A stretch of 64,000 nt of DNA. It comes from Psammoneis japonica. Taxonomy: Eukaryota. This document shows, one piece after another, positions 15,110-53,223 of the stretch; the stretch's first letter is position 1; every line of letters starts with the position of its first letter. Location: the NCBI GenBank assembly GCA_008632985.1, contig QPGO01000098.1, positions 1-64,000 of the forward strand, written 5' to 3'. The notes beneath the pieces are model-generated. The model had not been told where the DNA came from. It ran no database searches and saw only the letters and a program-made list of their open reading frames with translations. The position numbers and the translations under genes were made by a program.

Positions 15110-18100
15110 ACGACAGTTGTGTGTGCCAGAATCGCATTGAACGGCCATGTCAAGACTTGTTCTCATGCAGCTCACCATTGTCTTGGTGTGCCCGCTGCAG
15201 ACACATTTGCTGCTCCCAACTCCAAACAGTCGTTGGCTTGCTCCCTCAGCACAGAAAACATTCAAGCTTTGTTGTCTGGAGACCTGCATTTCATGCCTGC
15301 CAGGAGAACAATGAAAAAAGCAGTGCCATTTGAACAACTCTCTTTTCACAGCCTGCATGTCCATCTGTGAATGTTCTGTTTTCAATGTGTGAGTCTGCAT
15401 TGCTGGCTCAAGCCTGCCAAAATCTGCCCTCCTCCCACAACACAGCCATGGAAGGTGCACCATCACAAGAAAGCAGAGCAGAAAGGTCAAACAAAAGCAT
15501 TGAGTGATGACAACAAAAGAGTTGCTGTTGTTGCTCCTTGCCCTGACCGAAGATCGGGTGCTTCACTGTGGAGCCACTGGAAAAGCATTGGTGAAGAGAA
15601 AAATGTGACGGCTGCTCCAAACTCAAAATTCAATGTTTGATGTCATGTTTTTTTTGTCAAATCAAAATGGGTGCCATGCTGAGTCAACGTGTTGACTGGG
15701 GAAAGCATCATCACACTTTTCCCTTCACTGACCAGGGGCTGAGAAACTCAATGTCAACAGTGAGTGACATGGTTGGCTCTGTTCTGGAGTGTGAAGCCAC
15801 AAACTCTCTCATGTGAGTGGTGTTGAGCGGTTCTAAGAAATCATGTCAAAGAGGAAGAAAATGGAGGAAAAAAGCAGGAGTGGACATCTTGAGCAAGTCC
15901 TGTCCATGAGAGATCCTGAAAACCTGCGGTAAACATGATGATGCATGACCTTGTCCACATTGACAAAAAGCAGCTTTGGCACCACAGCCAACTCTGAATG
16001 CTGCATCCTCACAATCACTGGGAATGAGCCTCCAGCTGACATGACAAAGGAGCCAGATGCAAGCCAAGGGACATCTCCAAAGTGATGCTTCTTTGTGCCC
16101 AAGCACATCCAAGATGGGTGAGTGGCCCATGTGGCTGGGATGGAAAGATCACTCTGGGACATGGCGGATGGGTCATCTGAAGAAGCCAAGCAAGATTTCT
16201 TCAAAAATGTCCTGCAGGAATGCTGGTGTGGGTCAATCTGCACCATCCGCTGTTTGGCAAAACAGACCCAAGAACCTGCCAGGTGCCACATGATGTGTTG
16301 GAGCAGCAGCACTGCATGCATCCAGACCAAGTTCAACAAGACTTGGCTGCTCCTCCCGTGTTTTGTTGGGATTGTCTGATGCTTGCAGAGAGGCCCATCA
16401 AAAACAACAGGCTCATCAGAGTCATTGCTCAATGCTTTCAAGTGTTGCTTGGTGTCAGAAGGGCACATTGGCTCCTCAAGAAGGATTGAAATGTTGCAGA
16501 GGATGAGATGTTGACAAATCCATGAGCACCAGCAACATTTCAGAAAGCAAAGTTGCAGACAAGAACTGCCGTGGGATGCAGCAATGGAGAGCCAGCAGTG
16601 CTCAGAGCACAATCATGTTTGATGCTGCAAAATTTGAAGCAATGGCACAAGCACAAGATCAAGAGTGGCAGAGGAGGAAGAATTGTGTGCTGCAGCACAA
16701 GCACCAAAATGCAACAATGTTGCAAGGGGCAACTGGACTCTTTCACTTTCAGAAGTTCTGCAAAGGATGATGACAACAAACTCACATGCAAAACAAGCCT
16801 TTCCTGCCGCAATGACTGAGACTCAGAAACACTTCTCAGATGACAAGGTCAAGAGCTTGGTCATGCTGCATCCATCAAAAACATCAACAACATTTTCGGC
16901 ACCACCCACAAGAAGCACAAGGCCTTCTTGCTTCTGCACAGCAAGTGCATGACCACTTGGTGAGCTGCACCATGCCCACCCTTTCTTGTCAGTGCAACTC
17001 ATTGGATTCCATGTCAAGACATGGGCTGATTCATGCCTGTGGTGAAAAACAGTTTTCCCCCACTGCAAATCATGCTTTGATTGAAAGGTCTCTTGAGGCA
17101 CGCTGGCAGATGCCAAGGATTGTGTCAGACTGTGAAGGGTTGCCACAAAGCCTCCAGCAACACTGCCACAGTTGCTTGCACTGTTTGAAGAATGCGCAGC
17201 ACCCATCACAATCTGACAAGGTGAGCTGAGGTGTGTGTGTGCATGTGTGTGTGTGTGTGATCCATTTTTTGTTGCCATGGTCTGACCAACTTGTTGTTGT
17301 TGGCTTGCTGTCACCCTTGGTGGTTGAAGCATCCTTTAGAATCAAGCTCATGTTGAGTGCTTCTATGAGCAAGCTTGCATTCACTGTTGCACATTTCAAG
17401 TGAACCATCTCAACAATCCAGCAATTGTGAGACTGTGGTGTTGTCAGCCACAACCGCATTGACTTCTCTGTTGCCCATTTTGCGAAGAAGCTCCCCAGCT
17501 GTTGAATCAAATGCAAAGCAACTGCAATCTGTCATGGCACAGACAGTGCCCTTTGCCATGTAAAAGTGATCAACTTTCTGATCAGGGTAAATTTTCAAAC
17601 ATGAGTTCAATGACTCTGCTGTCCTTGTTGGTGTGATCTCACATTGCTGTCCCCCATTTGCACACAACAATGCCTCTCATGCCAGTGCTTCATGTTTGCA
17701 TCATCTGTGAAATCAACACATGACAAGTTTGATGAACTGCCATCCATTTGGAAGCTGCATCACACAAGTCAATGGGACAACACAACACTGCAATCAAAGA
17801 TCTGCTGCAAGGAGGGAGGCAGGAGAATCTTGAAAGCAAAATGAATGTAAAAATCTGATCAGAGCTGCTGACTCACCTTGCCATTGGTGAAGCCTGAGCC
17901 ATTTCCTTGGAATCAGCATTGTTGCACAGTGCCTTCCATGTGCAGACCCAGCCAATCAAGGTGCAAGCCACCACAAATTTTCTGTGCAATGCTGCATCCA
18001 ACACAGTCTGGCATGTGTGGGTGGGTCTCTTTCTCCATTGAGTTGTGCGACATTTTACAGCAGTTGGGGGCAACTGATCCAGCACTCTCAGGCAGAGAAA

Positions 18101-20150
18101 AAGCCTTGCACCCAATTTTTAAGTGCTGTCGCACCTTTGCCCAGCAACACCAGTGCCAGCTGACCCAAACTGCCTGCACACCCTTCTGGGAGCATGGCAG
18201 AAGCTCATGCAATTGGCCGGTCATGGCGCCACTTTGCAGTGAATCCCACCAGAGACAACCGGTTGAAACAAAATTGCACAAGAATGAGGTCATTGTTTCT
18301 TTTGGAATGGGTGCAAAGTGTGAACACCATGACAACAAAGCACAATCATGTTTGTGAGAGGATGCAAAACCACAGCTCAAGATTTGGGAGAAAAACCTTG
18401 CTTGTCTGCACCAAAGACAGACTGGATTGCACACTTCTTGCAGGCATGGGAATGGAAGCAAACAGATTGCTGTGCAGAGCATTGATCTTGGAAAGCTGGC
18501 AAAAGGAAGAAGGGACACTGAGGACTTGCAGGTGTGAAATGGGGAGCCTTGATGACATGCCGAGAAGGAAGTCAAAAGAAAGAGTGTTCTCGCACAGAAT
18601 TGACACCAAGTCTGGTGTGGAAATGCCAAAATGCTGTGTGCAGCAGATGGACGATCATCAGGTGATGCTGATGGCTCACCCAAATGAACACTCATGAGAG
18701 CCACAACAGGTGCAGAACTTTCACCAAATGAGGCAAAGAACTTGATTGTCCAGGAGTGCGGAAAAGAGTCATTGGGGACTGATGGGCATGGATGAAAGTG
18801 GTTTGCACTAGATCCTGTGTGGAAAATGCACTGAATTTGCAAAAAATTGCCAAAAACAAGAGTGACAAGCATGCAAGCCATGAGGTTTTGACACCGGTCA
18901 TTTTCCACTCAAAAGCATTGTGCATCATGCTGAAACAGAGGCGTGCCATGGGTGGAAATGGCCAAAACAGTCTCGGGGCCCCCCAGCAAAGAAACAGCAT
19001 CGTCTGAAAAGGGCAACATCAGCGCAAGAGCATGCACACAGAAACACATGCAGGGGCTGCAGTGGGTGCTGATGTTGATGAAGTGCTCTCAGGCAGAGAG
19101 ATTGGGAGGTGCAGCAGTGGTGTGAAGAAGTGTGTTGAGGAGCTGAAACAAAATTGGATCATCTGCAGAAATCGCAATGCTCAATCCCAGGCAAAACAAT
19201 TTGGGTTGTTGTCAATCTTGCAGAGAAAAGAAAGTTGTTTGACAGTGGACCAATGGGCAAGCCAGCCCATGTCAACAAAAAAGGCACCCATCCCTTGGTG
19301 GTCACCTCCAACCCCAATGGAACATCCAACCCCTCCTCGATCACATCCATGGCCCCCCAACACAAGATTTCCGGCAAGAGAAGCTGGCAACTGGCCACAC
19401 TGGAACTCAGATCAACTGGGGTGCCCCAGGCAGAGGCACAAAATGGTGCCCAACAACCTTCCAACAATTGAGACAACCCAGTGGACTGCCAGCTTTGTTG
19501 TTGCAAAGAACAAAAACTTGCCCCACTGGAAAAAGACAGAGAGCCCGGACTGCCCCTAACATGGAGAAAGGGAGTCTGGCATGAGCCACATGCTTCAATG
19601 CAGATCCACATTTTCTGCAGTTTGACCCCAATCTTAAAAATGTTGACTGCTTCAAAACACCTCTTTGCAGACAATGTGAACAATTGAAGCCATGCTCTGA
19701 ATCGATTTGGTTGGAGCTGGCATGTTCAAAGGATCCGAGGTCCAGCTGCTTGCGGCTCCTCAGGAACTCACACAAATTTTTGACAGCTGATGACTGCCTG
19801 GGATTGTCTCATTTGGTCACACCAGAGGGTGGTGTTTGATCCATTGATGAAACTTTTAGATGGACCAACGCAGACGTTGAGTCAATTTGAATGTCACAAA
19901 TGACTGTTGTGAGCAAAAGGATTGCCGCACTTGCTTTGATGGAAAACACTGCCAAAGAAAGAGCTTGTGCCTTTCCATGTCATCTTCATTGAAAACATCA
20001 TCCAAGTCATGGGTGCCTGCACAATGCGCTCCACTTTGCACCTTCAAAACATTTGCTGTCGTGTTGGATGCAGAAGAAACAAAGAAGGAAATTGAGTGAA
20101 AAGTTCAGATGACGATTGAAGGCATCAAATGAAGATGCCTTGCTTTGGCA
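15110..20150. repeat. Heavily decayed repeat-like DNA, possibly a LINE remnant on the + strand; class uncertain
   Basis: Near-total TpA loss and no intact ORF. A zinc-knuckle-like remnant 'WKKTESPDCP*HGERESGMSHMLQC' near 19530-19600 resembles LINE C-termini. Confidence 0.3.
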
Positions 20151-20596
20151 CCCTTGCCTTGTCATTGCAATGAGGTTTTAACATGCTCTCCAGGTGTTTC
20201 TTACACTTGGCATTAAATGTTGCCACCGCCGCAACCGATCCCATGGTCGACTTGAGTTGAATCGCGTGCCTGCGTTTTTGATGAAGAAAAATTGATTTTT
20301 TGTGGGTCAGGGAGCGTTTTGTCGAAAATCACAGTGATGGCTGCGCGGACGTGGCCCTTCTCGTACCCCGCCAAGTTTATGGAGACGCCAAGCAAGCAGT
20401 GAGTCCCTCCGGGGCTTGTTGAACTTGAAGATCCTCCAGGCCAAGATGACCGGTCATGGGACAGCTCAAGTGTCGGAGGCTTGCTGCACGCGCCAAAGCG
20501 AATCCACAAAAAGCGTCGTGGCTCCAGCACGTCGATTGACAGGCGAGGCAACGAAGGGCCCAAACAGCACCACAACAACACAAGATTGCATTCACG

Positions 20597-21633
20597 ATGA
20601 TGTTGTGCTCTGTCTGGTTCACCTCGGAAAAGATGACGGTTGTCCTGATGGCCCTTGTGGCCCTTCTCGCCGCCCTCCCGCAAACATCAGGCTCCACCTC
20701 CCTGGTGTTGGTCCGTCCCAACATTCGTCTCGTCGAAACGTCCCGCGACGAATCAGAAATGAGGAGCGGCGGCACCTGCGTGGATTCGCGGCACACGGCA
20801 AGTGATTGCTGGGAGCGAGAGCATTGCGACGATTCTTGCAGCAGCAATGCTGTTCCATTTGTGTCGGTGGAGGATCCAACGGCCGTCACCACATGCACTC
20901 ACACGCGGGTGAAAAAAGCCTGCGAACTGGCGGGACAGTTGGTCAACACCTTCCAATGTTCGGGTGCGACCGTCACGTGCCGTGTTGAGGATGCGCCGGG
21001 AGAACTCGCCCAATTGCAACTCTTTGCCAAAGAACACGACGTGCTGCCCACGGCTCCCTGCACCCAATCGTGTTTCGATGAGGAGACTGGAGGGTTGGTC
21101 AGTCCCAATGGCCAAGACGATGAGGCATCGGATGGCAGCTGTGAGATTGTGCCTGGCTGGTCTGTGCACTCCAAGTGCAGTGATGGCCAGGGCAATCGTG
21201 TGTGCGAACTGCCCAACGGAGAGACCTGCAATGACTGCATGCACCTGCACGATGAAGAGTCTTGCCGGGAGGCCGCGAAAGCCTTTGGACTGGCACTCGG
21301 TGGCCGAGCTATGACTTTGCGGGAGATCATGGCACCAAAGGATGCCACTGCTACACGGCCGCGAGCGCGGGCTTTAAGAATCAAGCCCACTTTGGCACGG
21401 GCGGCAGTGTCTGTGAAATGCGTTTTACCTTGTCATCGACATCGAGCCAACATCGACTCTTTGCGTGCACCCATCCGATCGACAAGAGTGGCAGTGAGCA
21501 GGAGAATGGCGGCAACAATGGCGAGCAGGAGAATGGTGGCAATGGTGCGATGGAAACGTCAGAGGCCCGTGGGAGCATTGTTGGGCATTTTGCTGCAGTT
21601 TTGATTGCGGCCCTTGTGGCTGTGATGCTTTGA
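20597..21633 (+). pseudogene. Decayed Cys-rich cell-surface protein with a C-terminal hydrophobic anchor
   Basis: Cys-rich ORF with frameshift. 'DFAGDHGTKGCHCY...AHFGTGGS' has His where Tyr is plausible. Ends in hydrophobic 'FAAVLIAALVAVML*'. Start uncertain. Confidence 0.5.
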
Positions 21634-22219
21634 TGCTGAAGAAAGCCGCATCACTGACATTTCATGCGCGCCACACCCGAGTTCACTGCTTCACAAGAGG
21701 TCGGAGAGATCCGGCACAAAACATGTTTGTGGGCGCCAGGGAACTTCGTAAAAGCCTGTTCGTCTCTAACTGCTAAATCCTTTTGAGTTGTTTCATCCAA
21801 TTGAATGGGTGGCTCTCGGATGGGGAAAATGCCTTCATGCTCTTATTCCTTGTTTCCAACTCTCTCATCATCCTGTGCAACGCATTCCATTCTTGAGCTC
21901 CAACAAGAGAAATCTGACCAGAGAGGATGTGGCCGGCTGCGTTGCTGTGATTGGAGCCATCGCCCACGCTGAGGACAGCACAGCAGCGGTCGAGGCCTTG
22001 AACGATGCCATGGGGTCTCGTCCACAGTCATCATGTCAATCATCTGAGCCTGTTCCTTCAAATGCCAGCTCCCCAGAGGATCACACGGTGACTGACCCTT
22101 GCAGCAGGATCAACACGGTTGGTCCTTAATGAACTCTAGTGACAGACAATTTTGGAGGGTCCAACTCGGATGTGACTTCTACGCCAGCAGATTTTCTTGA
22201 TGGCAGTCCTGTCTCTTGC

Positions 22220-22642
22220 TCACTCTGGACATGATTCTGATGATGTGGTGCAGGACTGACCTTCTGCATTGACACTTGCTTGCACTTGATGCCAGGAGCT
22301 GCCCCTCTTGCGCTTGCCAAAGCAATCACCCATGATTTTCTTGGTGACATCACCAAACTGGTGCTCATCTTTTCCCATGAAGCTGGACAAAGCCTTTTTG
22401 GTGATGTCACCAAACTGATGGTTGGCAGCAGCAACTCTGCCAGATTGCTGTCCTTTGGAAGGCTCTCCTTCCAGATCCGCGCCAATTGGCTCAGTCAAAG
22501 ATGGGTGTCGCTTTTGGACTGCAGTCTCGCATGTCCACCAACTCAAGAATTTTGCCAATGAGTCCCATCTGCGACAACAGAGCAGTCCCGTCTTCATTCT
22601 TTGAAACCTGAGTGCCCAAGAAAGCCAACACATCACCTTCAC
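22220..22642 (-). pseudogene. Decayed algal 'Y(E/Q)FGD(I/V)TK' repeat protein
   Basis: 'HQFGDITKKALSSFMGKDEHQFGDVTKK': both repeat units carry His at the position that is normally Tyr. Confidence 0.55.
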
Positions 22643-22664
22643 AAGTCAAATTGCATCTAACACA

Positions 22665-23030
22665 GATGGAGGTGTGGACTGTGCCTGGTGGACAATTATC
22701 TTCTGTGGGCAGGTCTGTCGATGCAAAGCCTGCAGGTCTCAAGAGCAAGTTGAAGAAACACAAAGGCAGCAACCAAGATTTGACTGCAAAAAAAAACTGC
22801 CCACCATGTCAGTCAGTTGATGGAGGTGTGGACTTTGCCTGATGGACAATCAACTTCAGTTGGCTGGTCTGCCAACACGAAGCCTGCAGGACTCAAGGGC
22901 AAGTTGAAGAAACACAAAGGCAGCAACAAGAATTTTTCTACAAAAAACTGTGAAGCCTGCAGGTCTCAAGGGCAAGTCAAAGAAACTCAAAGGCAGCAAC
23001 CAAGACTTGTCTACAAAAAACACTGCCCAT
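22665..23030 (+). repeat. Imperfect tandem repeat (~150-bp unit x2 plus a partial third unit)
   Basis: gatggaggtgtggact occurs twice; aagcctgcagg(t/a)ctcaag...aagaaac..aaaggcagcaac occurs three times. Confidence 0.85.
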
Positions 23031-25524
23031 CATGACAGTCAGTTGTCTGCTTCTGCTCATGTGCCCCCACGCTGGAGAAGAAGAGCGAGAATGAAGAATG
23101 CAGAAACAAGAACAACCAGAAATTGCACCACGACTTTGTTGTCAAATGTGTCAACCCACCTGTCGTGTTTGCATCAAATTCACAAATTCAAAACTTGACA
23201 AACAAGGCCGCAGTGATGTTGGAAATTGCTGGGCAGATTTTCCATGTGAGTTTGTCCCCAAGCAAGAGCTGTGGACAAAAAAATGATGACCTCAATCCAT
23301 GGCTGACAAAACATCATCACACTCACCCCAGCATTTGATGAGCCTTGTCACAACTGCCATTGTCTTGGCATGATGCATGATGACAACTCCTTGCACTCCC
23401 CAGACTCAGACAATCATCTCACTTGATTGCACAGCAGCTGTGGCCATGCAACAATCTCTTGGCAGATTGGCCCTGGCACACATGGATTCCTTGCCATGGA
23501 ATGGTTGGCAGCTCAGCAAGAGTTCAGCAAGCTCCTTGAATGATGGAACACGGGGATTAGATGGGTGTCAGGTGACACACAACAGCTGTGGAATGTCTTG
23601 TGGGACATGTGAAGACTTTGAATGTGGGTGTTGAAATCAGATGCTGTGTTTCCAAATCCAAACTGGCCATTCATGGCATTCTGAATGACCAAATTAAAGA
23701 GTGGCTTTTGGCAAGCTCCACAACAACCCGACTGTGCCATGCCCACCCACCAAGAAGTTTCCTGGTGGTTCACCTGACCATGGAAACTGTGCAGGCAGAA
23801 GACATCAACCACAAATGGCGCTGGCCAGCAAAGGCAGAAGCAGCAGCACAAAAGGCAATTGCCTCTCAGAGCTCTGATTGAAATGCCTGACAAACTCATG
23901 TGGCAATTCAGTTGCACAGAGTGCCAAGTGCCACTCACAACTTCAAAAGCAAAGGTGCATTTGTGCACCTGCATTGATGTTCTGACCATGTCTCCAGAGT
24001 TGTGGATTGAAAGAAATCTCAGGGGTGGCCAAGCTTGACACAGGCACCAGCAAATGAGCTGGGCAATTTTAAGATTGAATTGAATTGAGTTGCATTGTCA
24101 TCAGGTGTTGTTGTTGTGAGTTGTGATGGAGTGCCCCATGCTTTCCATTTTTGCACTTTGTTCATGCAAGGGTGCAACATGTGCTTGGCTCTTTGGCAGT
24201 TTCTGCAAAAACAGTTCAGTGGCGCAAGGTCCCACCCAGAGCTGGAACATGTCTGTTGGCATTTCCTGGAAAGTTGTTGCTTGTCAGTTTGTTGATGAAC
24301 ATGACAACCGCACCAAATCCAACAATTGGCTTTTGAAGGCCAACAAGCGCAGCTCACACAAAGGTCTGGCTGACAGCCTCAATGGGGTTCAGGTTTTAGA
24401 CACACTCACAAGTGTTTTGGGGTGCTCAGAGGCATCACAAAACAACACAGGTGAAGTGCAGGAAAATGACAAAATCATGAGTCATTTAAAAAAAAAAATG
24501 CCGCCAACCAACGACCCATCCTCATCCTGACATTTTGCCAATTTTTTCATGTTCGTGGCCGGTTGAAGAAAAAGGGAAAAAAGGAGGGGATTCAACCATT
24601 GAACACACACACACAAATTGACCATGCAACCAGGGCCAGAGTTGCACTGGCTTCCTTTGGTCCAGGGTGGTTGCTGCAGGTGCAAAGAGTGGGGCACACT
24701 GCACCTGCAGGAGGGTGACAATGTGACACTGAGTGCATGCTGCCAAGCTGAGCAGCCCAGCTTGGTTGCAAGCCAAGCCCTGCTAGGCCAGTTGCTCTGG
24801 CTCCAGTTGCTCCCATTGTGCATCAATTGTCGAAGGAGCACCACCACATTGACTCAAGAAAGGCTGTGTTTTGAGCAGGACAGAGAGAAAAACATTGACA
24901 TCTTGACTGGTGCTTGCTTTGAACCCTGTGTCATGAGCACAGGCTCCTCTTTTCATCTTGGCTGGTGCTTGCTTTTTAGACCCTGCATCATGAGCACAGG
25001 CTCCTCTTGAGAAAAGAGCAAGAGATGCTGCACACAGCCATTTTTGGCACCTCTCTTTGGTTGCCCACTTGGCATTGTCAACAAACTCTTGAACACAACC
25101 TCACTCAGATTTTCTTCACTCTTCAACCACAAAAGCAGGTCCAACTTTTTGTTGGCTTTTTTCAGCCGGGGGTCACTGTTGCAGGCACAAATGGTGGGCA
25201 CATGCTGCCATGTGGCTGCAGGGTGACAATGTCATGCCACCAAGCATGTGCTGCACACCAAGGAGCCAAGCAGCCCAGCTCAGCTTTGAATGAAGCCCCA
25301 GGACAGCAGCCAGCTCTGGGTGCTCCTGGCATGGTTCACTTGTTCAAGCTGTGCTGCACTCACCCCACAATGCTCTGTGTTGTGGTGGTGGTGGCTTGTT
25401 GCAAGTCACGAGGAGTCAGCAGTCAGCCGGGGGCCCTCATCTTGCAAAGGCCACACATGTTGACCCTGTGGAAAGCTGTGTGAGGGGCCAGGCACAGGGT
25501 TCTGCAATGATGGCTCCATGGCCA

Positions 25525-25813
25525 TTGGCCCCAAGTTGGCATTTGATTGGGAGCCAGTGCTGAGGGGCTGTGAAGTGTGGGGTTGGAAGCCCACCAGCCG
25601 GCTCGCACTCTTTGTTGGTGGCACAAAGTGCTGTTGCAGCTGTCTTTGCATTGCAACCAGCCAGATGCAGTTGGCTCCAAGTTGGCATTTGATTGGGAGC
25701 CACTGCCAAGGAGCTGTGAAGTGTGGGGTTGGGCAGTCCAGCCAGCTCACACTCTTTGCTGACAGCAGAAAGTGCTGTCACAACTTCTGTCTTTGCATTG
25801 TGGTGACAGCCAG
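25525..25813 (+). repeat. ~146-bp tandem duplication in decayed DNA
   Basis: ccaagttggcatttgattgggagcca and gctgtgaagtgtggggttgg each occur twice; copies differ largely by TG/CA/CG swaps. Confidence 0.85.
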
Positions 25814-27650
25814 GTGCACATGGCTTGAGCAGCTCTGGCACATCATGCCAACAAAGCCAACAAAAATGGCAACTTTTGTGGTTGGGCTGGCATGCAGGAG
25901 GTCTTGACACATCCCTGGGAAGTCTCAAACAGGAAGGAGGGCTCAGCATTGCCACCAGTGCCAGAAATGTGAGCTTGTCTTGGAGAGATTTGAGCCCACA
26001 CAGCCCTGAGTTGGGTGTCTTGGCAGGCAGGTTGGAAAGCATTCTTGAGCAGAGTCTAGCCAGCGGGCAGTGCTGTCATCAAGAGAGCTGCTCTGCAGAG
26101 GAAGAGGGAGAAACAGGCAACAACATTTTGCAAGAAATGTTTTGTCAATGGACGGGTCGGATGGGGTGGCATCTGGACTTTGATGGCGCATTTGGCAGAC
26201 AAAGCTTGAGCACAGAGAGCAGTCCACTCAAGCTCTGCAAGCAGCACATTCCAAAGGTGACACCACTCATGGGCTGTGTGTTCATGCGTGAACATGTCTC
26301 AAGCTGCAAGTCACAAAAAAACCACCACCATCCTTTCAACCAACCACCATGGACAGAACAGGGCAAGAGGTGTCAAAACAAGAGTGATTCATTGACTCTC
26401 TTCTCATTTCATTGTGCGTTGTTGTCTCTTTTAATTCAAGTGCAAAGAGGAGTCACTTTTCTTGTTTCTTTCTCTTGAGGGGTTGTTGGTTGTTGAGAGT
26501 GTGATGCAATTTTTGTTGTCACAAATTGGAAACAAACCCGATCACTGCTTGACTGTCAACTCATTTGCTGTTTTAAGTCTCCGTGGCTTAAAATGCCATG
26601 AACCCAGATCCCTCAATTGTTTCATCAAATGCAGTGCTTTGAAACACGTCCAACATCAACTCAACTCAGTTGAAATCCCAGTTTGTGGGCAATGAAAAGT
26701 CACGAATGTCAAACAAATGGCTGCTTTCGACATCAAGATCCCCAAGTTCAATCCACATGTGATGGTGTGCTTCACAGCTTGTGGCCATGGCTCCACAAGC
26801 ATGCTTTGTTGTTGTCATCGCGTGCTTGTCTCAAAAATGCGACACATCAACAGTTCAGGAAAGGGTGGAATGCAGACTCATTTGTGCATTCGTTGGCAGC
26901 ATTGGCCCAATGACATTTGCGGAAGAAGTGATCGAAAACCCTCATTTGCTGTTGACATTTCTTCATTGCTCAGAATTTGAAATCTGACCACTGCCGTCAA
27001 GCATCTGGCTTTCTTTGTGTTGAAGTGGAAATGACACTTGGTGATTTGTGCTGATCTTTTGGCTTTCTTTGTGTTGAAGTGGAAATGGCATTTGACGATT
27101 TGCACCAACCGTTTGGCTTGCGGCACTTTGGCTCAAAGTCAGATGAAGAGATTGGGTCATGGGCTTGTCATCAACCAGCCACGAGCATGAAATCTCATTT
27201 CTTTGTGTGGAGATGTGCACACTCTGGTGTGGAATTTAATTGGCTATAAAAAGTTGTGGTGAAATGCATGCTGGCATGATTGTCCATCGTGTGCAGACTC
27301 TACGATGTCTGCATCCACTGCATTTTTTGCAACACTTAACTTTTTGTTGGCTCCCACCATGACAAATGACAATGCTTTCTCATTGTGTTTTTTTTTGTCA
27401 TGGCAAAATGAACAATGGTCTTCTTGCAAGTCATTGTGAGGCAAGGGCTGAAGTTGTGGAGTGTTGGAAGGTCCTCTCATTCTCTTGCTGCATCTGTGCA
27501 CACGTTGACATCAGTTTCAGGAAAAGTGGAAGCATGTGTTGGTTGATTGACAACAACATGTGCACATCAACCATGCACCATTTTTCATTCAAGACAAAGG
27601 TGAGAGGAGACAGATGGCCTGGGGCCTTGGAAAGCATTTCTGTTGCTTTT

Positions 27651-29204
27651 AGAGCAAATCTTTGGTTCTTTGTCAGGTGCAAGAAATGTGTGCTGGACAG
27701 TCCATGCATCTTGGAAGCAATGGCTCACATTTTAACTTCAGTGAAGAGCCTGCATCAAAAACAAGAATTGTGTTTGACCACACTTCATGTGGAGCAGATG
27801 AAAACTTCAGTTGGAGCAGAGATTGAAGAAGGAGGAGCATGTCTGACAATTGACAAGGGCTGCTGGCATGGTGGTTGCTCTTTTGTTGCTTGTCATGCAC
27901 AAGCTCCTTTCACTGTCTTCTTGCTTGCATTGATGGTGAGCAGAATTTTTGTTTGACATTCTCATGAAACACCATGGTTGTTCTTGCATTGTGTTGTGAA
28001 GAGTGCCCTCAACACAGAGGCATCATTGAGAACTGCACCAGTGTTTGCAAGTTTTGGCGTGGGAGTTTGTGCAGAAATGCCAAATGAAGGGGGGGGGGCA
28101 TTGCTGCAAACCAATCTTCTGACACTTTTGTGGTTGGCAACAGAAGTTTTGTGTTGCACTGTGTCATTGACGGCATTGTTGAAGCAACCTGCAGCTGGTG
28201 CACTGTGCTGGAATTGCAGTGGTCTGCCCCCACACACCCAAAAGCAGCGTCTCAATGAATGATGTGGCAGCGGGTCTGTTGCTTTCAGTGCTTTTAACTC
28301 AAGCATCTTTCAAACTCACCCTGTGTGCTTGGTGGAGGCAACAAGTGGCCATCAGACAGCAGCTCATTGTCTGATTTGTCAAAAGCACGGCTTTGCTTTG
28401 ACCTGCAACTTCACAGGAGGGGTCAGAGCAAATCTTCGGTTCTTTGTGAGGTGCAAGAAATGTGTGCTGGACAGCCCATGCATCTTGGAAGCAATGGCTC
28501 ACATTTTAACTTCAACGAAGAGCCTGCATCAAAAACAAGAATTGTGTTTGACCACACCCCATGTGGAGCAGATGAAAACTTCAGTTGGAGCAGAGATTGA
28601 AGAAGGAGGAGCATGTCTGACAATTGACAAGGGCTGCTGGCATGGTGGCTGCTCTTTTGTTGCTTGTCATGCACAACTCCTTTCACTGTCTTCTTGCTTG
28701 CATTGGTGGTGAGCAGAATTTTTTAGTTTGACATTCTCATGAAACATCATGATTGTTCTTGCATTGTGTTGTGAAGAGTGCCCTCAACACAGAGGCATCA
28801 TTGAGAACTGCACCAGTGTTTGCAAGTTTTGGCGTGGGAGTTTGTGCAGAAATGCCAAATGAAGGGGGGGGGGCATTGCTGCAAACCAATCTTCTGACAC
28901 TTTTGTGGTTGGCAACAGAAGTTTTGTGTTGCACTGTGTCATTGACGGCATTGTTGAAGCAACCTGCAGCTGGCGCACTGTGCTGGAATTGCAGTGGTCT
29001 GCCCCCACACACCCAAAACCAGTGTCTCGACAAATGATGTGGCAACAGGTCTCTGTTGCTTTTGGTGCTTTTTGACTCAAGCATCTTTTGAACTTGCCCT
29101 GTGTGCTTGGTGAAGGCAACAAGAAGCGGCTGTCCAGACAGCAGCTCATTGTCTGATTCGTTGAAAGCGTGGCTTTGCTTCAACTTGCAACTTCAGGAGG
29201 GGTC
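27651..29204. repeat. ~774-bp tandem duplication of a decayed sequence
   Basis: 27651-28424 and 28425-29204 are near-identical; near-identical ORF-track translations at 27978 and 28753. Confidence 0.95.
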
Positions 29205-29539
29205 TGCAGGGCAAAAAATCCATGATTTTTCATGTTGCAGGGTGCAGAGGGGGCGGCTTCACTGTTGGGCATAGAAGGTGGCACCATGCCGCAACATAAA
29301 AAGTCATTGGCTTTGGAGAAATGGTCAGCACAATCGTTGAGCGACCGATTGCAAGGCATTTCTCGTGCTTTGCAAAGACACCTTTGCAAAGACACCACTT
29401 TTCTGTGACTGCAACTCGTGACCAAAATTCCGCCGCGATCGTTTTCCATGCCTCAATTTTCAATGCCGCCTGCGCTGCTGCTGTCGTTGTCGGCGCGTTG
29501 TTGACATTTTTGCTTTTTTTGTAAACTCAGTTCAAAATT

Positions 29540-30441
29540 ATGGTGCTTAGGAGAAGTCGAATGATGTTTACCATTCAATTTGTGTTGCTCTTCGTCGTCT
29601 TGGCGGCAACAACTTCATGGGCAAAACAACAAGAGCCATCATCAAAACACATTCTTGTCGAATTGAGGGATGATAATTTTGATGCCAAGACGGAGGTAGG
29701 GATTTCTTTTTTTTTTGTTGTGTGCAGTGATTTGTTTTTCAAACAAACGCGAATTCATTCCATTTTTGTTCATGTCATTTTTACGTTTTGCATATTATCA
29801 TGTAGCTCGGTTGGACGAGAGAATCATCGGTATACTCTACAACATCTGGCACAAGTTGGTTTATCGTCTTTAGGGCACAACGGTGTCCTCATTGTAAAAA
29901 GCTCATGCCTGTCCTTGATGAATTAATGTCAAAACATTATCCAGAGATTCAATTTGGTTCGGTGGACGTACCAAGTAATCGTGCGACAAGCATTCGATTT
30001 GGCATTCGGTAAAAAGAACATGTTGTGGATTATATATTATGATTGCGTCGTTTTTGCTCGTTTCTTCTTTGTGCGCTCACACCTCAACTTTTTGATTTTT
30101 ATTATTTGGCACACACAGAGGCTATCCAACCTTGATATTATTACACAAGGACAAACTCTATCGTTACAAGGGACGACGTAGCTTGGTGGATTTGGATTTG
30201 TTTTTGGAGGAAAAGGATGCCAAGACGGAACCCATTCCACCTCCACCCACGTGGACGTCACAGACTTTGACTCTTGTAAAATCGATTAGTTTGGAATTGT
30301 GGGACTTGCTGACGGGCAAGTCTGGTGGTGCAGCGGGTGTAGCCGTTGTGTCTGTTGGTTGTAACGTTGGGTATTGTGGGTGGTATCGTGGCCATGTTTT
30401 TCATGCCAGCCAAGAAAGATTGGAACAAGAAACAAAGCTAG
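29540..30441 (+). CDS. ER membrane thioredoxin-domain protein (TMX/PDI-like), 2 introns
   Basis: Signal peptide, 'VELRDDNFD', 'WFIVFRAQRCPHCKKLMP' (CxxC), 'GYPTLILLH', a C-terminal TM segment and KKxx ER-retrieval end (NKKQS*). GT-AG introns at ~29696-29804 and ~30009-30118. Apparent indel near 30350. Confidence 0.85.
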
Positions 30442-30508
30442 TAGATGCATATATTTTTGAATGACTTTTTAAATGCCACGTGGTTGCATTATTCTCTACT
30501 GTATCAAA

Positions 30509-31787
30509 TCATGTGTAAGGTTTTTCTTTTGTCTGCTGCACAAGAAAGCTAGGGCTCGTCCCGATGCACCATAACGTGCCTGGTGCGATAATTTCAATCA
30601 TCAATGATTCCTTGTCTCTCGGCTTGACTTTTTTCGTTCTTGTTACTGTTTTCTTTAGGATTGCCATTATTGGGGTGCTCTGGGTTTCTTGCCAGAACCC
30701 CATCGGCACGCACTTAAGCGCCTTGGTACGTTTCTTCTTTAAAGCTGCTTCGCTTTCCAACGCTGCAATCGCTTGGCAGCAATGGCCAAGATAGATTCCT
30801 TGTAACTCCATCCCACCAAGAGCCATGTATGCAATAAAGTATTAACCGTTGCCAAGGACCAGTCGGTGTATTGAATCAAGAGCGGATACATGGGTAACAA
30901 CGGTGCGTTCCAAGCAAAGCCAATGTATCCGCACGCGATAGATGCGACGCGTATGATGCTGCTGCTGCTGCTGACGAAAATCACGCAACATGACTGCCAA
31001 AATGACATAAAACGTCGATGGAAACTGCGTCGTTCCGGCAATAAAGATATCACACGCAGGCGTTGATAACTAATACCACCCACCGCACACACCAAGGCTT
31101 GAAAACATCCAAAACCAATCCAAAAGGCTTCTGGAAAAATGGGAATATTCTGTTGTTGGTGACCCATGATTGTGGGTACCTTGTTGTGAAAGCCCCGTGC
31201 CAACTTGGTTCCGCCAGACCCATGATTCCGCCCGCCAAGGATACCGTTCCGACACAGAGCGTCCACCACGTACGAAATTGCCAAGTATTACGGGATTCCA
31301 CAGTGTGATAGTGCTGATGAGCCCATCCACCACAAAAGACGGAAACCGCATACAATCCCAACAATGCCGCACTGCAACGCGCCAACTGATCACTGACATG
31401 TGATTTGTTGCTCTTTTGCAAAAGTAGCAACTTGAGTGAAAACAAACCCATAATTACCAATAGCACATAATCGGTAGCATACGTCCAGACGGTGTTATCA
31501 AACAACGAATCCTGAGGAGTGTACTTGTAAAAGGCAGGCACATACGTTTCCGTGGCGGCATGTGGTGCCATGGCAAAGGGAAACCACATACTGAATCCGA
31601 GCGTCGCGGCCGAAATGAGAATTCCAACGAAAAACCGAAACACACCACGTCTAAATTCAATTTTCGATTTCTGCCGTTCGTGTTCAAAAAAGTAGGGATC
31701 CTTGGCTGGAAACAAGGGCTTGCCGACCATTGTACTATCATTCTTCTTCTTTTTCACATTATTGAGTCCATCGTCGGGTTGACACAT
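30509..31787 (-). CDS. Multi-pass membrane protein of unknown function (apparent frameshifts near 31215 and 30960)
   Basis: Start MCQPDDG at 31787. Several hydrophobic helices ('WTYATDYVLLVIMGLF', 'LLGLYAVSVFCGGWAHQ', 'NTLLHTWLLVGW'). Normal TpA content; overlapping ORFs in different frames. Confidence 0.7.
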
Positions 31788-32089
31788 GATGTTGATAGGA
31801 TGTACGTTTGATCTGGTTGCAATCCTACAAGAGCAACACAGAACAAAGTGCGACGATGGGCTTCTTGTTTTTATTTCGCACGCCGTACGTTTTGTGGGGT
31901 GGATGCAGCTTTCGTAGATTTCCACGTGATGCTTGTACCAATGGTAACATGGATACGTGGAGGCCACGGGGAGGAGGTGACGACACCGATTGTTGAAGTG
32001 CGCCATGTGACGCGCTTATCAAAAGTTGACGTCGTCATCGGCCAAAACATGGTGTGTATGTAATCAGTTCTGAATATCATGTTTGCAAC

Positions 32090-48118: not shown

Positions 48119-51100
48119 TGTAATCCCAGAGATCTCGAATGATGCCACGTCAGAAAATGGACATTCTTTGAATGTCATTCACGCAGAACATGCACTGAGG
48201 GTCACAGTGGAGGTTCGACACTTGCATTGAAACTTTCTGATGTCTGACTTAGCCGTGTGGAAATTCTGAGATGATTGGACGTCTCTGAATGTCCACAGTC
48301 TTTCTAAGATGTCACACTCCCTTTGAAAGTGTTGGGCAAAGCTGTGACTTGATCTAATTCACCACTTGAGGAGCTTCTTTTGAAGGCAAACAAACATGTT
48401 TTGAGGCACAGGCTTGGTCTCCATGTCTGCGATTTGTTGAGTGGTGTCAATGGGCAGAATGGAAATGATTCCCTTCCCAACATGTTCCTTGAAATGATGC
48501 AGCTCCAGATTGAAATGCTTGGTTCTTGGTCTCATCTTGGGCAGTTTTGCAATTTCCAATGCACCTGAATTGTCTTTGAATGCTTTGCAATGAACTGAAG
48601 GAGTCTTGGATGGAACCTTGTGTCCACACTCTTGAAATTCCTTGACAAATTGATGACAGGAATGGTGCTTCGGAGTCGGCTTCTGTCGCACTTGGTGCGA
48701 TTTGTGTCTGAATCTTAGATGTCCAAACTGCAGGGCAGTCCGTGCAGGCAATGACGCATCCGGTCCTGGACTTTGAAGCACTGACATCAAAAGGCACAGT
48801 CATTTTGTTCCAATTGCCTGCAAAGTCTGCATCGGCATGAACTTCCAATGACTTGTCTTCCGTTGGTTCAAGAATGATGACACCTTCACATCTGGTTGCC
48901 TGCAAGCACTTGCAAACCACAGTGCTGCCTCACCATGTGATTGCTTGGGGTGCTTGAAAATCATGCGATTTGATGTGTTGCACAAGCCATGTTGGGTCTG
49001 CTGCACTTCTCGAGGAAGTTGAGCTTGCCAACCACAGTTCGGCAGTCAAAAGAGCTGTCAAATGGCTTTTCATTCTCGTGTTGGTGCAGTGTCTTGGAGG
49101 ATGATGCTGGAGTTTGCTTGTCCGGTGCGCGACATGGTGAGTTTGCCATTTCCAGCATCTGCTGCTTGATCATCTGCGGTTGCGTGAGTTTCACACATCC
49201 ATCAGGGAGGGTCTCGATGCTGACACCAAGATGGTCATCAATGCTCCCTTGATCGTCGACATCAAAATTCTCATTGCGCATGTCGCAACAGCAGCTTGGT
49301 TGACAGCAGCCTTGTCTGGTGAAGCAAAAATGCCATCATCAACATGATGTGTGAAAATCACATTTCCTCTGCAACAAGACATTTGTCAACTTGTGATTGT
49401 TTGAAACCAATTTTCTCCAGACCTTGCCTCAAGTGTTCACCCCAAATTCTGCCTGCTTGTTTCTGTCCATGTGGGTTTTTCAGCAACTTCAGAACATCAG
49501 TTTTGCCATCACCACATTTGGTTTCAATGCCTTTTGGCAGTTCCACATGCACGTCGCACTCGATGTTGGCATGAGGACAGGCCAGCACAAAATTGACTTG
49601 GCGAGGCTGCCACCCATTCAGAACGGATGGGATGAGTGGGAGGCAGACAGTGTTCCAATTGATGACAGCAGCATGAGTTTGAAAGCAGTCAACCGTGCAC
49701 TCTTGTTTTCCACCATGCACACTGAGCCTTGACTTGCACTTGTGCACCTTTCTTGTTTTGATGTCTCTCTTTCTCTTCACAGACCAGACCACTGGGAGTG
49801 TGTCTGCACCTTCTGGGACTTCTTCAACAGGTGTCAGCACCCAGTGCTTGCACACAATGTGGTCATTGACCTCCTTGATGCACGCTTTGATGAACTCATC
49901 ACGGCCCGATTGTCTCACAGCTTGATCAAAACACATGGCATTGGGTCTGTCTTGGCCAGAAAGGCAAAATGTGAGTCCATGTTGTCTTGCAGCTTGCAGT
50001 CGTCCTTGTGCATTGCATTGCGGCACTTGCAACAGGTCAATTGATGTGATGCGATGCAACACCAGCGGCCTGTTGTCACAGGCTTTCGACCATTCGTTGC
50101 GTCGGTTTGCATGCTCCGCCAGACCCGCCAACACTTGGTTGTTCCGATGCTGTCTCTTGAGTGTCTTCAGGTGGCAGATCTCCTGTTGATTTGGTCATCT
50201 TGACCTCAGTGATGGGGAAATGTTTGTCTTTGAGTTGTCATGGAATGTTGGGTTCCGGCGCCAAAGTGATCTGCGCTGGCGCAGCGGAGCGTGGCTCCCT
50301 CACTTCCCTTTGGGTCTTGAAGACATTGAATCTTGATGTTCTTTGTTTCTCGAGTCCTGGTGCAGTTTGCCATTGCAAGAAAGTGGGTGCATTCCCTGCC
50401 AAAGGGCACGCCATTTCGAAGAAGTCATTGAATTGGATGTGAAACTGCGGCGAGGCAAGTCCCGTCTCAAGGTTGAGTGCTGGATTGACTGATCCGGCGT
50501 GTCTTGGAGATGGTCCCAAGTTGATCCCCAACCTTGCTCTTGATTGCCATTTGGGCACTCTCTGTCCACTCTGCAGTTGGCTGTCCAGTGCATGGACTGG
50601 GCATCCGAAAGTGTGATGTTGCTTGAGATTCGGAGCTGCCTTGACGGAGGTGAATCGCTCAATTGGGGAGCTGCCATCTTCGCAGTCAGGCAAGTTGTTC
50701 TTGAGCTTGTTGGTGTTGCGCAGTGCACTTGGCCAGAGATTGATCTCAAACGCCATTGGTCATCTTGCTTTTGCACGCAGCAGCTGCTTGCGAGTCTGTT
50801 CTTGCAGGTTGCGGATTTGCTTTTTGGCAATGCCATTTTGGAAGTGGGTGTTGACGCCCCAGCATGACATGGTTTGGCCTTGTTTCTCAACGTCTTGCAT
50901 GAAAGCATTGTCAGCAAATTGGCTGTTGTTGGCATGGCAGTGTTTGATTTGGACATGATGTCATCTTGCAAAGGCTTCAAAAGCATGCTTGGCCTTCAAG
51001 GTTTCTTCCAAGGCAAGTGCAGTGTGCATGCAGACAAAAGGTTGTTTTTGTCACGCCCTTTGTGACATTTAAAGGCTGCAACACGTCGCCGTGGTGCATC

Positions 51101-52597: not shown

Positions 52598-53223
52598 CCT
52601 CGGCCCTCATTTGAATGGCGTCGTGGTGGTTGAGGTGTTGGCGTAGACTGTCTTGTGAAAGGTGATCTCGCACTGAGCCTTCTTGTGTGCCATTCAAGCA
52701 GGGTGGCCCTTCTCATGGTGGATGATGGAAATGACTGAAACACACATCGGATGTTGCCACAAACATTTTTTGTCCTCGTTTTGGCTGAACCATCAGACGG
52801 TTCAAGTTCTCCGTCCCTTCCCCAACAGGGACACTGCCCGCGCCACCCACTCCGGCACTTCCAACCACTGGCGACTTTTTGCTGTCTGTCCCCGGCGTGC
52901 CTCCAAACTGTGTTCAATGTCATGAAAGCTGCAATCAACAACATTGTCTTTGCTTTTAAAGACTCCGTTTTTCAATCTTTCTTGGGGCAATTCGACTCTT
53001 CATCAGCTGACGTGTGGCTGACATCCGGAACAGTGCTGCACACACTGCAACAGCAACAACACAAAGGGATGGTCATCCATGCCGATTCACCCCAGTGCTC
53101 TGATGTAAGACAGCAACACTTGTCAGCATCCTCTTGCCACTGGCATCCCCAAAAAAAAACAGGACCGAAAGTTTGGCTGCTGCCTTTTAGGGAAACATGA
53201 CATTGCTCCAGGCCTCAACAACT

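Follow-up and report, generated by a model that had tools for sequence, protein, structure and literature searches.

A gene relic nearly without TpA but with most of its CpG in a repeat island, and evidence for two separable dinucleotide losses

The island and its gene relic

The locus is a CpG-keeping island that holds a two-frame gene relic within a 14.4-kb TA-depleted tract, with a multicopy repeat on its left side and DNA stripped of both TA and CG on its right (Table 1). The window, that is, the whole 64-kb stretch of DNA analysed here, is made up of seven TA-depleted tracts (39,143 bp, 61% of its length) that alternate with six normal tracts (24,857 bp).

Table 1. Features of the island, its surroundings and other affected DNA in the window
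Feature	Position	Strand	Description	Basis
TA-depleted tract around the island	15110..29521	.	14.4 kb; 56 TA, overall CpG o/e 0.30, CA 1552 / TG 1619	two-state Viterbi on TA positions and per-kb profile
Multicopy repeat left of the island	19207..20259	.	stripped of TA and CG	contig depth, composition
CpG-keeping island within the TA-depleted tract	20227..22019	.	120 CG, CpG o/e 0.86, 10 TA, GC 0.557	CG-based Viterbi segmentation of the depleted tracts
TA-free run	20378..21310	.	932 bp, with 67 CG	
Putative relic, first frame	20597..21301	+	hydrophobic signal-peptide-like start, Cys-rich body; ends within the domain's first half (..CREAAKAFGLALGG)	
Frame break within the conserved domain	21301..21310	+	fits loss of one base	homologs continue gap-free from frame 1 to frame 3
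Putative relic, second frame	21307..21633	+	the domain's second half (SYDFAGDHGTKGCHCY..AHFGTGGS), Gly/Asn/Glu-rich linker, hydrophobic C-terminal tail, TGA stop	
Right flank stripped of TA and CG	22020..29334	.	CpG o/e 0.18; single-copy to 24.0 kb, then high-copy repeat 24.0-27.6 kb	
Tandem duplication (27649-28420 / 28423-29202)	27649..29202	.	differences include 7 CA↔TG doubles	93.6% identity; 98.3% after purine/pyrimidine collapse
Normal tract beside the depleted tract	29522..32075	.	113 TA, CpG o/e 0.99; transcribed, spliced gene	Viterbi and X2 contig
Copia-type polyprotein relic	49361..52606	-	TA-free, CpG partly kept; mostly one frame, in-frame stops; Tyr 0-1 per ORF	Pfam RVT_2 4e-16, Pol_BBD, SH3_retrovirus
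Alpha/beta-hydrolase (HSL-type esterase) relic	53224..54582	-	1 TA, 52 CG, 0 Tyr in 452 codons	Pfam Abhydrolase_3 3e-13

Between positions 20400 and 21300 (901 bp) there is no TA at all, against 39.5 expected from base composition, and the minimum in 2000 mononucleotide shuffles of the same sequence was 23. CG is present 65 times against 75.8 expected. Normal tracts have 0.0383 TA per step, and at that rate a TA-free run of 932 bp has a probability of 1.6e-16. The left flank (19000-20199) has 4 TA where 81.8 are expected and 15 CG where 67.4 are expected, and the right flank (22020-24000) has 9 TA against 132.7 and 21 CG against 114.1. The counts and shuffles confirm the sequence-only reading in its description of 20.4-21.3 kb as CG-rich and without TA between flanks depleted of both. 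The string quoted there begins at 20726, and the coordinates given for the segment were roughly correct, with the island (20227-22019) extending ~270 bp further rightward.

The first frame of the relic, 235 codons long, contains 17 Cys, 7 His, and no Tyr. In tblastn with homologs, the conserved domain has its first half in this frame, at 21212-21322, and the break between the two frames is defined by paired two-frame tblastn pieces for P0121, P0122, P0126-P0129, P0131, and P0140-P0142. The domain (..GL.LGG.GY.FAG.YGTKGCY.Y..FGTGGS..) is matched by 25 proteins at E<=1e-3 (HMMER, best 6e-15) and is repeated in proteins; no Pfam family covers this secreted-protein domain in the eight homologs scanned. 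At three columns the domain in the window has His where Tyr is found in 28, 33, and 19 of 35 homologous copies, and Tyr is kept exactly at the surviving TA sites, 21310 and 21352. One of the three columns has a natural His in 4 of the 35 copies, and at another the reading is KGCH in P0122, a homolog that was filtered out and lies outside this alignment.

Word-indexed searches, run at near and at shorter lengths, yielded no relatives of the first ~235-240 residues at E<=0.01, the first 235 codons gave no usable ESM Atlas match and no Pfam match, and no second copy of the relic was detected within the window by tblastn. Because no intact relative was found, the direction of change in the first 235 codons is deduced from their lack of Tyr (P about 1e-3) together with their continuity with the domain. 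The loss of TAA and TAG makes all frames long, so that an open frame here is no evidence for coding. The segment is probably what remains of a single-copy gene whose product was secreted, Cys-rich, and presumably membrane-anchored, and as read from its predicted translation it is a pseudogene, since its frame breaks inside the domain. The segment had been proposed to be a recently captured gene copy. A gene relic is indeed indicated by the signal-peptide-like start, the lack of Tyr, and the position of the frame break, but capture is unsupported, the depth being single-copy and a second copy being absent from the window. A recent age of the segment is plausible.

The DNA run X1, which may be the source sample of the window assembly, has contigs at a word depth of about 45-60 that cover the tract with few differences, and the tract sequence is therefore no assembly oddity. 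Summed contig depth is 588-632 over the left repeat compared with about 45-60 for 20409-24014, and other copies of this repeat diverge from the window at 20259 (a loose end) and carry internal deletions. The segment thus stands at single-copy depth and begins where the multicopy repeat stops.

The affected DNA of the window comprises one recognised Copia relic, multicopy repeats as judged by depth, and cellular-type genes, namely the island relic and the esterase relic. In alignments of the latter, Cys replaces the tyrosine of the DYRLAPE motif that is present in 4ypv, 1lzk, and 7wol. A Pfam scan of 123 ORFs of at least 110 aa, picked from 173, matched only three Copia pieces and no viral family, and LTRs of the Copia relic were found neither by blastn nor by purine/pyrimidine-collapsed blastn. 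Rfam and tRNA scans of the window gave no match. The window also encodes a CDC50-like protein, with matches of at most 58% identity, the named ones being from diatoms at 43-47%.

Loss of TpA and CpG across the window

The island is not unique, as DNA that keeps CpG to some degree amounts to 15.2 of the 39.1 kb of TA-depleted sequence (CpG o/e 0.41-1.34). Inside TA-depleted DNA as a whole, CpG o/e ranges from 0.04 to 1.34 and the loss of TA is near all-or-none, with TA o/e at 0.05 where CpG o/e still stands at 0.63-0.90. TA o/e was below 0.15 in 69 of the 128 500-bp windows, and CpG o/e in these was below 0.3 in 39, intermediate in 25, and at least 0.7 in 5; none of the 44 windows with TA o/e of at least 0.35 had CpG o/e below 0.3. 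Loss of CG without loss of TA was seen in 0 of 128. Given this strict nesting, the loss of TA is always at least as complete as that of CpG, which fits a TpA process that is faster or earlier. Rims that are TA-poor and keep CpG, from 187 to more than 2335 bp wide, are found at 8 of the 12 borders between depleted and normal tracts.

The proposal in the sequence-only reading that TpA conversion is not a by-product of CpG decay is borne out by the coexistence of near-complete TA loss with high CpG and by the nested pattern. The further proposal that it is faster or earlier agrees with the nesting, but a TA process that extends more widely in space fits equally well. Overall, the observations support two separable decay processes, with TA lost first.

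The fate of the missing dinucleotides could be followed by book-keeping. In depleted DNA, TA o/e is 0.04-0.05 and CA/TG is at 1.56-1.86, with all other dinucleotides at 0.83-1.27; A in contexts other than TpA is unaltered (o/e AA 1.22, GA 0.97). The summed share of TA, CG, CA, and TG among all steps is 0.2469 in normal tracts, 0.2404 where both are lost, and 0.2450 where only TA is lost. As this sum stays constant at 24-25% in every tract class, TA and CG have been turned into CA/TG by single transitions. The CA+TG share predicted from the missing dinucleotides is 0.2355 in the both-lost tracts, compared with 0.2289 observed, and 0.2017 in the TA-only tracts, compared with 0.1998 observed. GC content by 500-bp window class is 0.526 (TA-only), 0.504 (intermediate), and 0.476 (both lost), the order predicted from sequential TA-to-G/C and then CG-to-A/T changes. 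Tyr makes up 6 of 2,224 residues in eight TA-poor ORFs and 101 of 3,574 in nine normal ORFs. Skew between CA and TG reached p<0.01 in only 4 of the 128 500-bp windows, two of them in or at normal tracts, and no clear local strand runs of CA versus TG, in the style of RIP or APOBEC clusters, were seen in these 128. Taken together, these data establish that TpA was converted, in which direction, only within tracts, and independently of CpG loss.

Comparison of copies places the conversion in situ and on DNA, since CA↔TG doubles separate repeat pairs of the window and also separate the window from X1. Eight repeat pairs in the window differ by 25 CA↔TG doubles, 12 TA↔CA/TG and 21 CG↔CA/TG changes, 52 other transitions, and 44 transversions, and their identity goes up on purine/pyrimidine collapse (in one case from 90.1% to 100%). 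Of 272 differences between X1 contigs and the window, 40 are listed, and these include five CA↔TG doubles. Among the differences listed, CA in the window faces CG in X1 at four sites and the reverse holds at one, which indicates that CpG decay has begun in the segment.

A proposed mechanism and its alternatives

The island most likely represents a gene relic in a silent repeat island that was swept by a DNA hypermutation directed at TpA only, and a separate decay of CpG would have stripped the flanks and barely begun here. The first process would act on DNA and alter only TpA steps, to TpG or CpA (A:T to G:C), in a near-complete sweep affecting both strands. The second, separate process would be the decay of CpG to TpG/CpA expected of methylated cytosine, by which the flanking repeats would have been stripped. 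The chemistry of the first may be deamination of the TpA adenine, as proposed for Bigelowiella natans, or an attack on thymine; TpA being self-complementary, both would yield the same product. The survival of CpG in the segment would preferably be explained by a TpA process that is orders of magnitude faster and that also reaches past methylated repeat bodies.

It is possible, if rather doubtful, that the survival of CpG reflects spill-over and not youth. A host gene boxed in by repeats would then lie within a TpA chromatin domain that extends some hundreds of bp, up to about 1 kb, beyond each repeat, with CpG methylation and decay confined to the repeat bodies, and the island would be uninformative on age. 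The CpG-keeping rims at 8 of 12 borders are consistent with this, as are the start of the single-copy island at the end of a multicopy repeat and its length of 1.8 kb, which could be covered from both sides. However, the right neighbour at 22.0-24.0 kb is single-copy by depth and has nonetheless lost its CpG. Moreover, a 6.3-kb internal CpG-keeping block (49883-56170) contains the Copia relic, itself a repeat, and age is consequently a better fit than reach.

CpG could also have been kept because the segment is transcribed and hence unmethylated, the TpA process being blind to transcription and methylation. Low-depth contigs (2.6-7.3) of the RNA-like run X2 on 20756-21754 speak for this reading, yet they differ from the window by 12 of 227 aligned bases, 19 of 464, and 19 of 357 (4-5%), and may belong to another haplotype or copy. 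None of the runs listed for the window is recorded as RNA. X2 itself is recorded as "DNA?", and it is taken as RNA only because a GT..AG stretch of 110 nt within the neighbouring gene is missing from one contig (from 29514). In addition, the TA-depleted tract halts at the edge of that transcribed gene, its end at 29521 lying at most 8 bp from the first RNA-like contig at 29514, which argues that transcribed DNA is spared and leaves this explanation unlikely.

Nesting without methylation would also arise from a single deaminase that is efficient on A in TpA and poor on C in CpG. ADAT2-type enzymes are reported, in the preprint text, to be active on both A and C in DNA (bioRxiv 10.64898/2026.01.13.699255), and the losses of TA and CG share the products CA and TG. 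Such an enzyme is nevertheless improbable here, given a TA loss that is near all-or-none against a CpG o/e of 0.04-1.34 in the same DNA, and a CpG survival that depends on the flanking bases as in methyl-CpG decay (GCGC 0.49, TCGA 0.05). The same text describes almost no G:C>A:T change in B. natans tracts (bioRxiv 10.64898/2026.01.13.699255).

ADAR-like A-to-I hyperediting of RNA that was then retro-copied into the genome is disfavoured as very improbable: ADARs are described in the preprint text as preferring a 5' U (bioRxiv 10.64898/2026.01.13.699255) and the affected sequences include a Copia element, but the loss is strictly at TpA with AA and GA at 1.22 and 0.97 o/e, strand-symmetric (CA 1552, TG 1619), and continuous over repeats, a unique gene, and spacers, and the same site differs between tandem copies and between haplotypes. 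A native TA-free gene, or a sequencing or assembly artefact, has nothing besides bare composition in its favour and is scarcely credible and disfavoured in view of Tyr-less ORFs with Cys or His at conserved Tyr positions, coverage of the tracts by DNA and RNA-like contigs of public runs with about 1% differences, and a dinucleotide book-keeping that balances.

Implications and comparison with known systems

On the preferred reading of a TpA-only hypermutation, it is quite possible, though put forward tentatively, that a second, diatom-like lineage, unrelated to the chlorarachniophyte in which such a process was first observed, runs a TpA-specific DNA editing defence across whole chromatin domains. 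Such a system would erase all Tyr codons as well as all TAA and TAG in repeat islands and in any trapped cellular genes, outpacing cytosine methylation by far and acting independently of it. If so, sites that have become CA in one haplotype and TG in the other would mean that the process is active now, and the symmetric transition differences of 4-5% that set the X1/X2 version apart from this segment would mean that the gene was hit after the haplotypes split. A saturated TpA footprint in a different eukaryote suggests a system that is widespread or has arisen repeatedly. The segment separates the TpA footprint from CpG decay, which makes it a clean substrate on which to study the enzyme's recognition, for example at surviving TTAA sites, and the two losses may offer a two-clock dating of silencing, with TpA as the fast clock and CpG as the slow one. 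For annotation, only TGA stops remain in such tracts, so that long open frames are meaningless, and the relics mimic "novel" proteins that are rich in Cys and His and free of Tyr.

In fungal RIP, C is converted to T, mainly at CpA, which creates TpA and lowers GC, and the process leaks into neighbouring single-copy genes. It shares with the window the dinucleotide-specific and near-saturating transitions, the ruin of repeats together with neighbouring genes, and sharp tract borders, but in the window TpA is destroyed and GC goes up. RIP was rejected on the loss of TpA, the gain of CpA/TpG, and a GC of 0.52-0.56 in TA-only tracts.

Methylated CpG in silenced repeats decays to TpG/CpA. This decay would account for the flanks, with their CpG o/e of 0.15-0.2 (0.17-0.18 by segmentation), excess of CA/TG, and flank-dependent CpG survival, but it cannot remove TpA and has had no appreciable action on the segment, where a CpG o/e of 0.86-0.90 led to its rejection as the cause.

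The footprints of APOBEC and ADAR in animal retroelement copies are made prior to integration, in cDNA or RNA, with one strand affected and at loose motifs. A host deaminase and clustered transitions in copies of mobile elements are common to these systems and to the process proposed for the window, in which, by contrast, the changes were made in place, on both strands, and at one strict dinucleotide. ADAR-type hyperediting of retro-copies was rejected on a loss that is strand-symmetric and strictly TpA, with sites that differ between copies in place.

The closest system is that of Bigelowiella natans. Besides the 2026 preprint on this organism, no report of a natural, strictly TpA-directed A:T>G:C chromosomal mutator was found in the literature, and nothing was found there on such TpA-depleted tracts in diatoms. 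The text of the preprint describes integrated viral DNA that undergoes localized TpA>TpG/CpA hypermutation (Mettrop et al., bioRxiv 10.64898/2026.01.13.699255); of 231 de novo changes recorded in two tracts, 230 were A>G/T>C, with all of the GC-biased ones falling on TpA, and the de novo rate was raised about 1000-fold. A hypermutable NCLDV tract retains 3.3% TpA, 124 clusters are counted genome-wide, reverse-transcriptase and transposase domains are enriched in TpA-poor genes, and an ADAT2-type adenosine deaminase is proposed (bioRxiv 10.64898/2026.01.13.699255). The term "CpG" is absent from the main text of the preprint, and a layering with CpG decay is therefore undescribed there (bioRxiv 10.64898/2026.01.13.699255). 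In the window, A:T>G:C changes at TpA likewise lead to TpG/CpA and lie in discrete tracts beside normal DNA. As far as the preprint text describes B. natans, the two have in common an exclusive TpA target, TpG/CpA products, confinement to tracts, and a long-term depletion of TpA with a gain of CpA/TpG. The window probably comes from a diatom-like organism and not from B. natans, whose proteins are public although the CDC50-like protein finds no match above 58% identity. Measured against the same text, the window differs in its organism, in a depletion that is saturated (o/e 0.04) over 61% of 64 kb, and in that a single-copy cellular gene is affected.

Composition of the TA-less segment and its surroundings

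The window is a mosaic of two composition classes. In 1-kb steps, the ordinary class has a CpG o/e (observed/expected) of ~0.7–1.2 with a TpA o/e of ~0.3–0.9, and the other has TpA near zero with a CpG o/e anywhere from 0.07 to 0.92. The clearest case of near-zero TpA with CpG untouched is the stretch that the sequence-only reading had described as CG-rich and TA-less, and this observation was confirmed: 20400–21300 holds no TA versus 39.5 expected (fewer than 23 in none of 2000 shuffles) and 65 CG versus 75.8 expected, the longest TA-less run is 932 bp, and both flanks are depleted of TA and CG. The tract is covered by contigs from a public DNA run (X1), which are at single-copy depth and differ from it by ~1%; the tract sequence is therefore real, and X1 is possibly the source of the window itself.

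Features of the window
Feature	Position	Strand	Remarks
Scaffold gap	3445–3597		153 N, within TA-depleted tract
TA-depleted tract enclosing the island	15110–29521		two-state segmentation
CpG-keeping island	20227–22019		two-state segmentation
Frame 1 of relic	20597–21301		hydrophobic signal-like start, Cys-rich; 0 Tyr in 235 codons
Second frame of relic	21307–21633		domain continuation, Gly/Asn/Glu-rich linker, hydrophobic tail, TGA stop
High-copy repeats	24000–27600, 18005–18605, 31828–32428		summed contig depth 600–4000 vs ~55 single-copy
Tandem duplication	27649–28420 / 28423–29202		0.78 kb, at edge of depleted tract
Copia-type polyprotein relic	49361–52606	minus	Pol_BBD, integrase SH3, RVT_2 (4e-16)
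HSL-type alpha/beta-hydrolase (esterase) relic	53224–54582	minus	adjoins Copia relic; one open frame; Pfam 3e-13
Long ORFs without known family	61899–63356, 63314–64000	minus	TA-poor, CpG-keeping tract
Rimmed borders	3940, 7011, 29521, 32076, 34808, 45575, 57394, 61666		

Among 128 windows of 500 bp, the 69 with TA o/e <0.15 have CpG o/e <0.3 in 39 cases, 0.3–0.7 in 25 and ≥0.7 in five; the corresponding counts are 0, 4 and 11 for the 15 windows with TA o/e 0.15–0.35, and 0, 1 and 43 for the 44 with TA o/e ≥0.35. TA loss is near all-or-none and CpG loss is graded. The earlier claims that the two losses are separable and that TA goes first both hold. TA-depleted DNA keeps CpG over 15.2 kb (o/e 0.41–1.34) and has lost it over 23.9 kb (0.04–0.28), and CpG loss with TA kept occurs in none of the 128 windows.

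Conversion of TpA and CpG in place

TA and CG were converted and are not simply missing. TA, CG, CA and TG together make up 0.2469 of steps in normal tracts (CA+TG, 0.1544), 0.2404 in tracts that lost both and 0.2450 in those that lost TA only; when all missing TA and CG are counted as CA/TG, the predicted CA+TG shares are 0.2355 and 0.2017, and the observed shares 0.2289 and 0.1998, respectively. GC content (0.476 in normal windows, 0.526 with TA only lost, 0.504 at intermediate CpG and 0.476 with both lost) follows the trend that two opposite transitions require.

The hits fell on the DNA in situ and affected both strands. The tract holds nearly equal numbers of CA and TG (1552 and 1619), and only four of 128 windows are skewed at p<0.01. 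Eight repeat pairs within the window differ mostly by transitions (25 CA↔TG doubles, 12 TA↔CA/TG, 21 CG↔CA/TG and 52 others, beside 44 transversions and 26 gap positions), and purine/pyrimidine collapsing raises pair identity from 93.6 to 98.3%, from 90.1 to 100% and from 85.2 to 95.1%. CA facing TG between copies is the trace expected when a single ancestral TA (or CG) has been hit twice independently, and at least five such doubles separate the window from X1 contigs (among 40 of 272 difference rows). The tandem duplication is near-identical over its first 600 bp and its doubles crowd the last 170 bp, as though the hits had preceded homogenisation or duplication of part of it. In the runs, loose ends from further copies of the high-copy repeats retain TA and CG, and less-mutated copies may therefore exist elsewhere in the genome.

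Of the surviving TAs, 28 of 48 where both dinucleotides were lost and 10 of 24 where TA alone was lost lie in TTAA or CTAA/TTAG, contexts that hold 110 of the 947 TAs of normal tracts. By tract-class counts over the whole window, TTAA survival is ~0.5 versus 0–0.07 in most other contexts, and ATAT and ATAC/GTAT have no survivors. This concentration may mean that recognition by the TpA mutator takes in one or more further bases on each side. CpG survival in tracts that lost both is 0.49 for GCGC, 0.26 for CCGC, 0.05 for TCGA and 0.08 for ACGT; the same ranking, weaker, in TA-only tracts fits one slow CpG process at two stages. The adenine in TpA would be deaminated to hypoxanthine and then read as G; attack on the T of the opposite strand would give identical products, indistinguishable in sequence because TpA is self-complementary. 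With moderate confidence, adenine deamination is favoured, as proposed for Bigelowiella natans (bioRxiv 10.64898/2026.01.13.699255).

Gene relics and the history of the segment

The window is eukaryotic. Its normal tracts carry ORFs of CLASP, FG-GAP/ASPIC, amine-oxidase, CDC50, DHFR and Ysc84 types; named matches of the CDC50-like ORF include diatoms (43–47% identity), and its best match, unnamed, reaches 58%. Over the gene at 29.5–32 kb, one contig of a second public run (X2) omits a 110-nt GT..AG stretch, and X2, listed as "DNA?", was for this reason taken as RNA.

TA is present in every tyrosine codon. Eight TA-poor ORFs encode six Tyr in 2,224 residues, versus 101 in 3,574 for nine normal-tract ORFs, and the esterase relic (1 TA, 52 CG, no Tyr in 452 codons) has Cys at the DYRLAPE tyrosine of three solved esterases, with other Tyr positions likewise held by His or Cys. 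The TA-poor ORFs were therefore originally ordinary coding sequences, whose TAY codons turned into TGY or CAY. The Copia relic is TA-free (CpG o/e ~0.5) and mostly single-frame with in-frame stops; no LTRs were found for it, purine/pyrimidine collapsing included. The two long ORFs without known family (1 Tyr in 433 residues, 5.8% His) are probably further Tyr-stripped gene relics.

In the segment, a conserved domain opens in the last residues of frame 1 and continues in the second frame. A HMMER search of 1.84 billion representatives found it, often repeated, in 25 unnamed proteins (P0121–P0145). They are homologous to 21307–21500, and the repeated domain has ~50–70 residues, is Tyr/Gly-rich (..YGTKGCY.Y..FGTGGS..) and is often preceded by a Cys-containing "C..AA...GL.LGG" half. 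Pfam scans of eight homologs assigned no family to the domain, and sequence searches detected no relatives for the first 235 codons of frame 1. With tblastn, 10 homologs gave paired pieces in both frames joining at 21301–21319; the break therefore lies within the domain, and the copy is a pseudogene. The open frames (34 ORFs ≥60 aa overlap 19–23 kb) are no sign of integrity, since TAA and TAG are gone. In an alignment of 35 domain copies from the 25 proteins, made with a motif filter that missed those of P0122, three columns rich in Tyr (28, 33 and 19 of 35) are occupied by His in the window, which keeps Tyr at two columns, exactly at the surviving TAs (21310, 21352). At one of the three columns, four of the 35 copies have His naturally; at another, the reading of P0122 is KGCH.

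The proposal of a recently captured gene copy fared unevenly, so that the sequence-only reading as a whole is partly supported. Capture is unsupported: the segment is at single-copy depth, is not part of the adjoining repeat and has no second copy in the window. Recency is suggested by intact CpG, the recognisable domain and 4–5% divergence of X2 contigs on 20756–21754 (12/227, 19/464 and 19/357 differences per aligned bases), with ~1% elsewhere in the stretch. Over all aligned X2 contigs the changes are symmetric (A>G 13, G>A 13, C>T 18, T>C 16; 10 transversions). Such symmetry would be expected had both versions independently lost ~38 TA per kb, as may have happened, with ~3.8% difference in the form of CA/TG doubles; an intact version should have left another pattern. 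Seven difference rows are listed inside the segment: window CA against X1 CG in four, the reverse in one, window CA against TA in reads in one, and one transversion; CpG decay has therefore begun, and one TA is still segregating.

Order of the losses and comparison with B. natans

Two readings, not mutually exclusive, fit the TA/CpG pattern. In the first, TpA loss is far quicker than methyl-CpG decay. The sole Pfam-recognisable relics in TA-depleted DNA (Copia, esterase) lie in CpG-keeping parts, as does the segment's recognisable domain, and tracts that lost both gave no match among the ORFs scanned (123 of 173 ORFs ≥110 aa). At the B. natans tract rate (~6–7e-7 per site per generation, entirely at TpA; genome baseline 3.5e-10; bioRxiv 10.64898/2026.01.13.699255), the TpA half-life would be of order 1e4–1e5 generations, an extrapolation from another organism assuming ~57% A+T; any plausible methyl-CpG decay is far slower.

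In the second, the TA process seems to extend further than CpG loss. A TA-poor, CpG-keeping rim of 187 to >2335 bp lies at eight of 12 depleted/normal borders, and one depleted tract ends (29521) 8 bp from the neighbouring gene's first RNA-like contig. The island starts at the end of a multicopy repeat, whose other copies diverge from the window at 20259 and where depth drops from ~600 to ~45–60.

For B. natans, the preprint reports that an integrated giant-virus tract and a virophage tract undergo TpA>TpG/CpA hypermutation, observed in real time, and that TpA-poor, CpA+TpG-rich clusters exist elsewhere in the genome too; "CpG" is absent from its main text (bioRxiv 10.64898/2026.01.13.699255). 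The TpA>TpG/CpA signature is common to both systems. Three further features of the window are absent from that text: TpA loss that is independent of CpG decay and precedes it, its spread to single-copy genes of cellular type, and the resistance of TTAA. A literature search on such tracts in diatoms or on other adenine-directed genome defences returned nothing beyond this preprint, and the finding therefore belongs to a very recently described kind of TpA hypermutation, in another lineage than B. natans.
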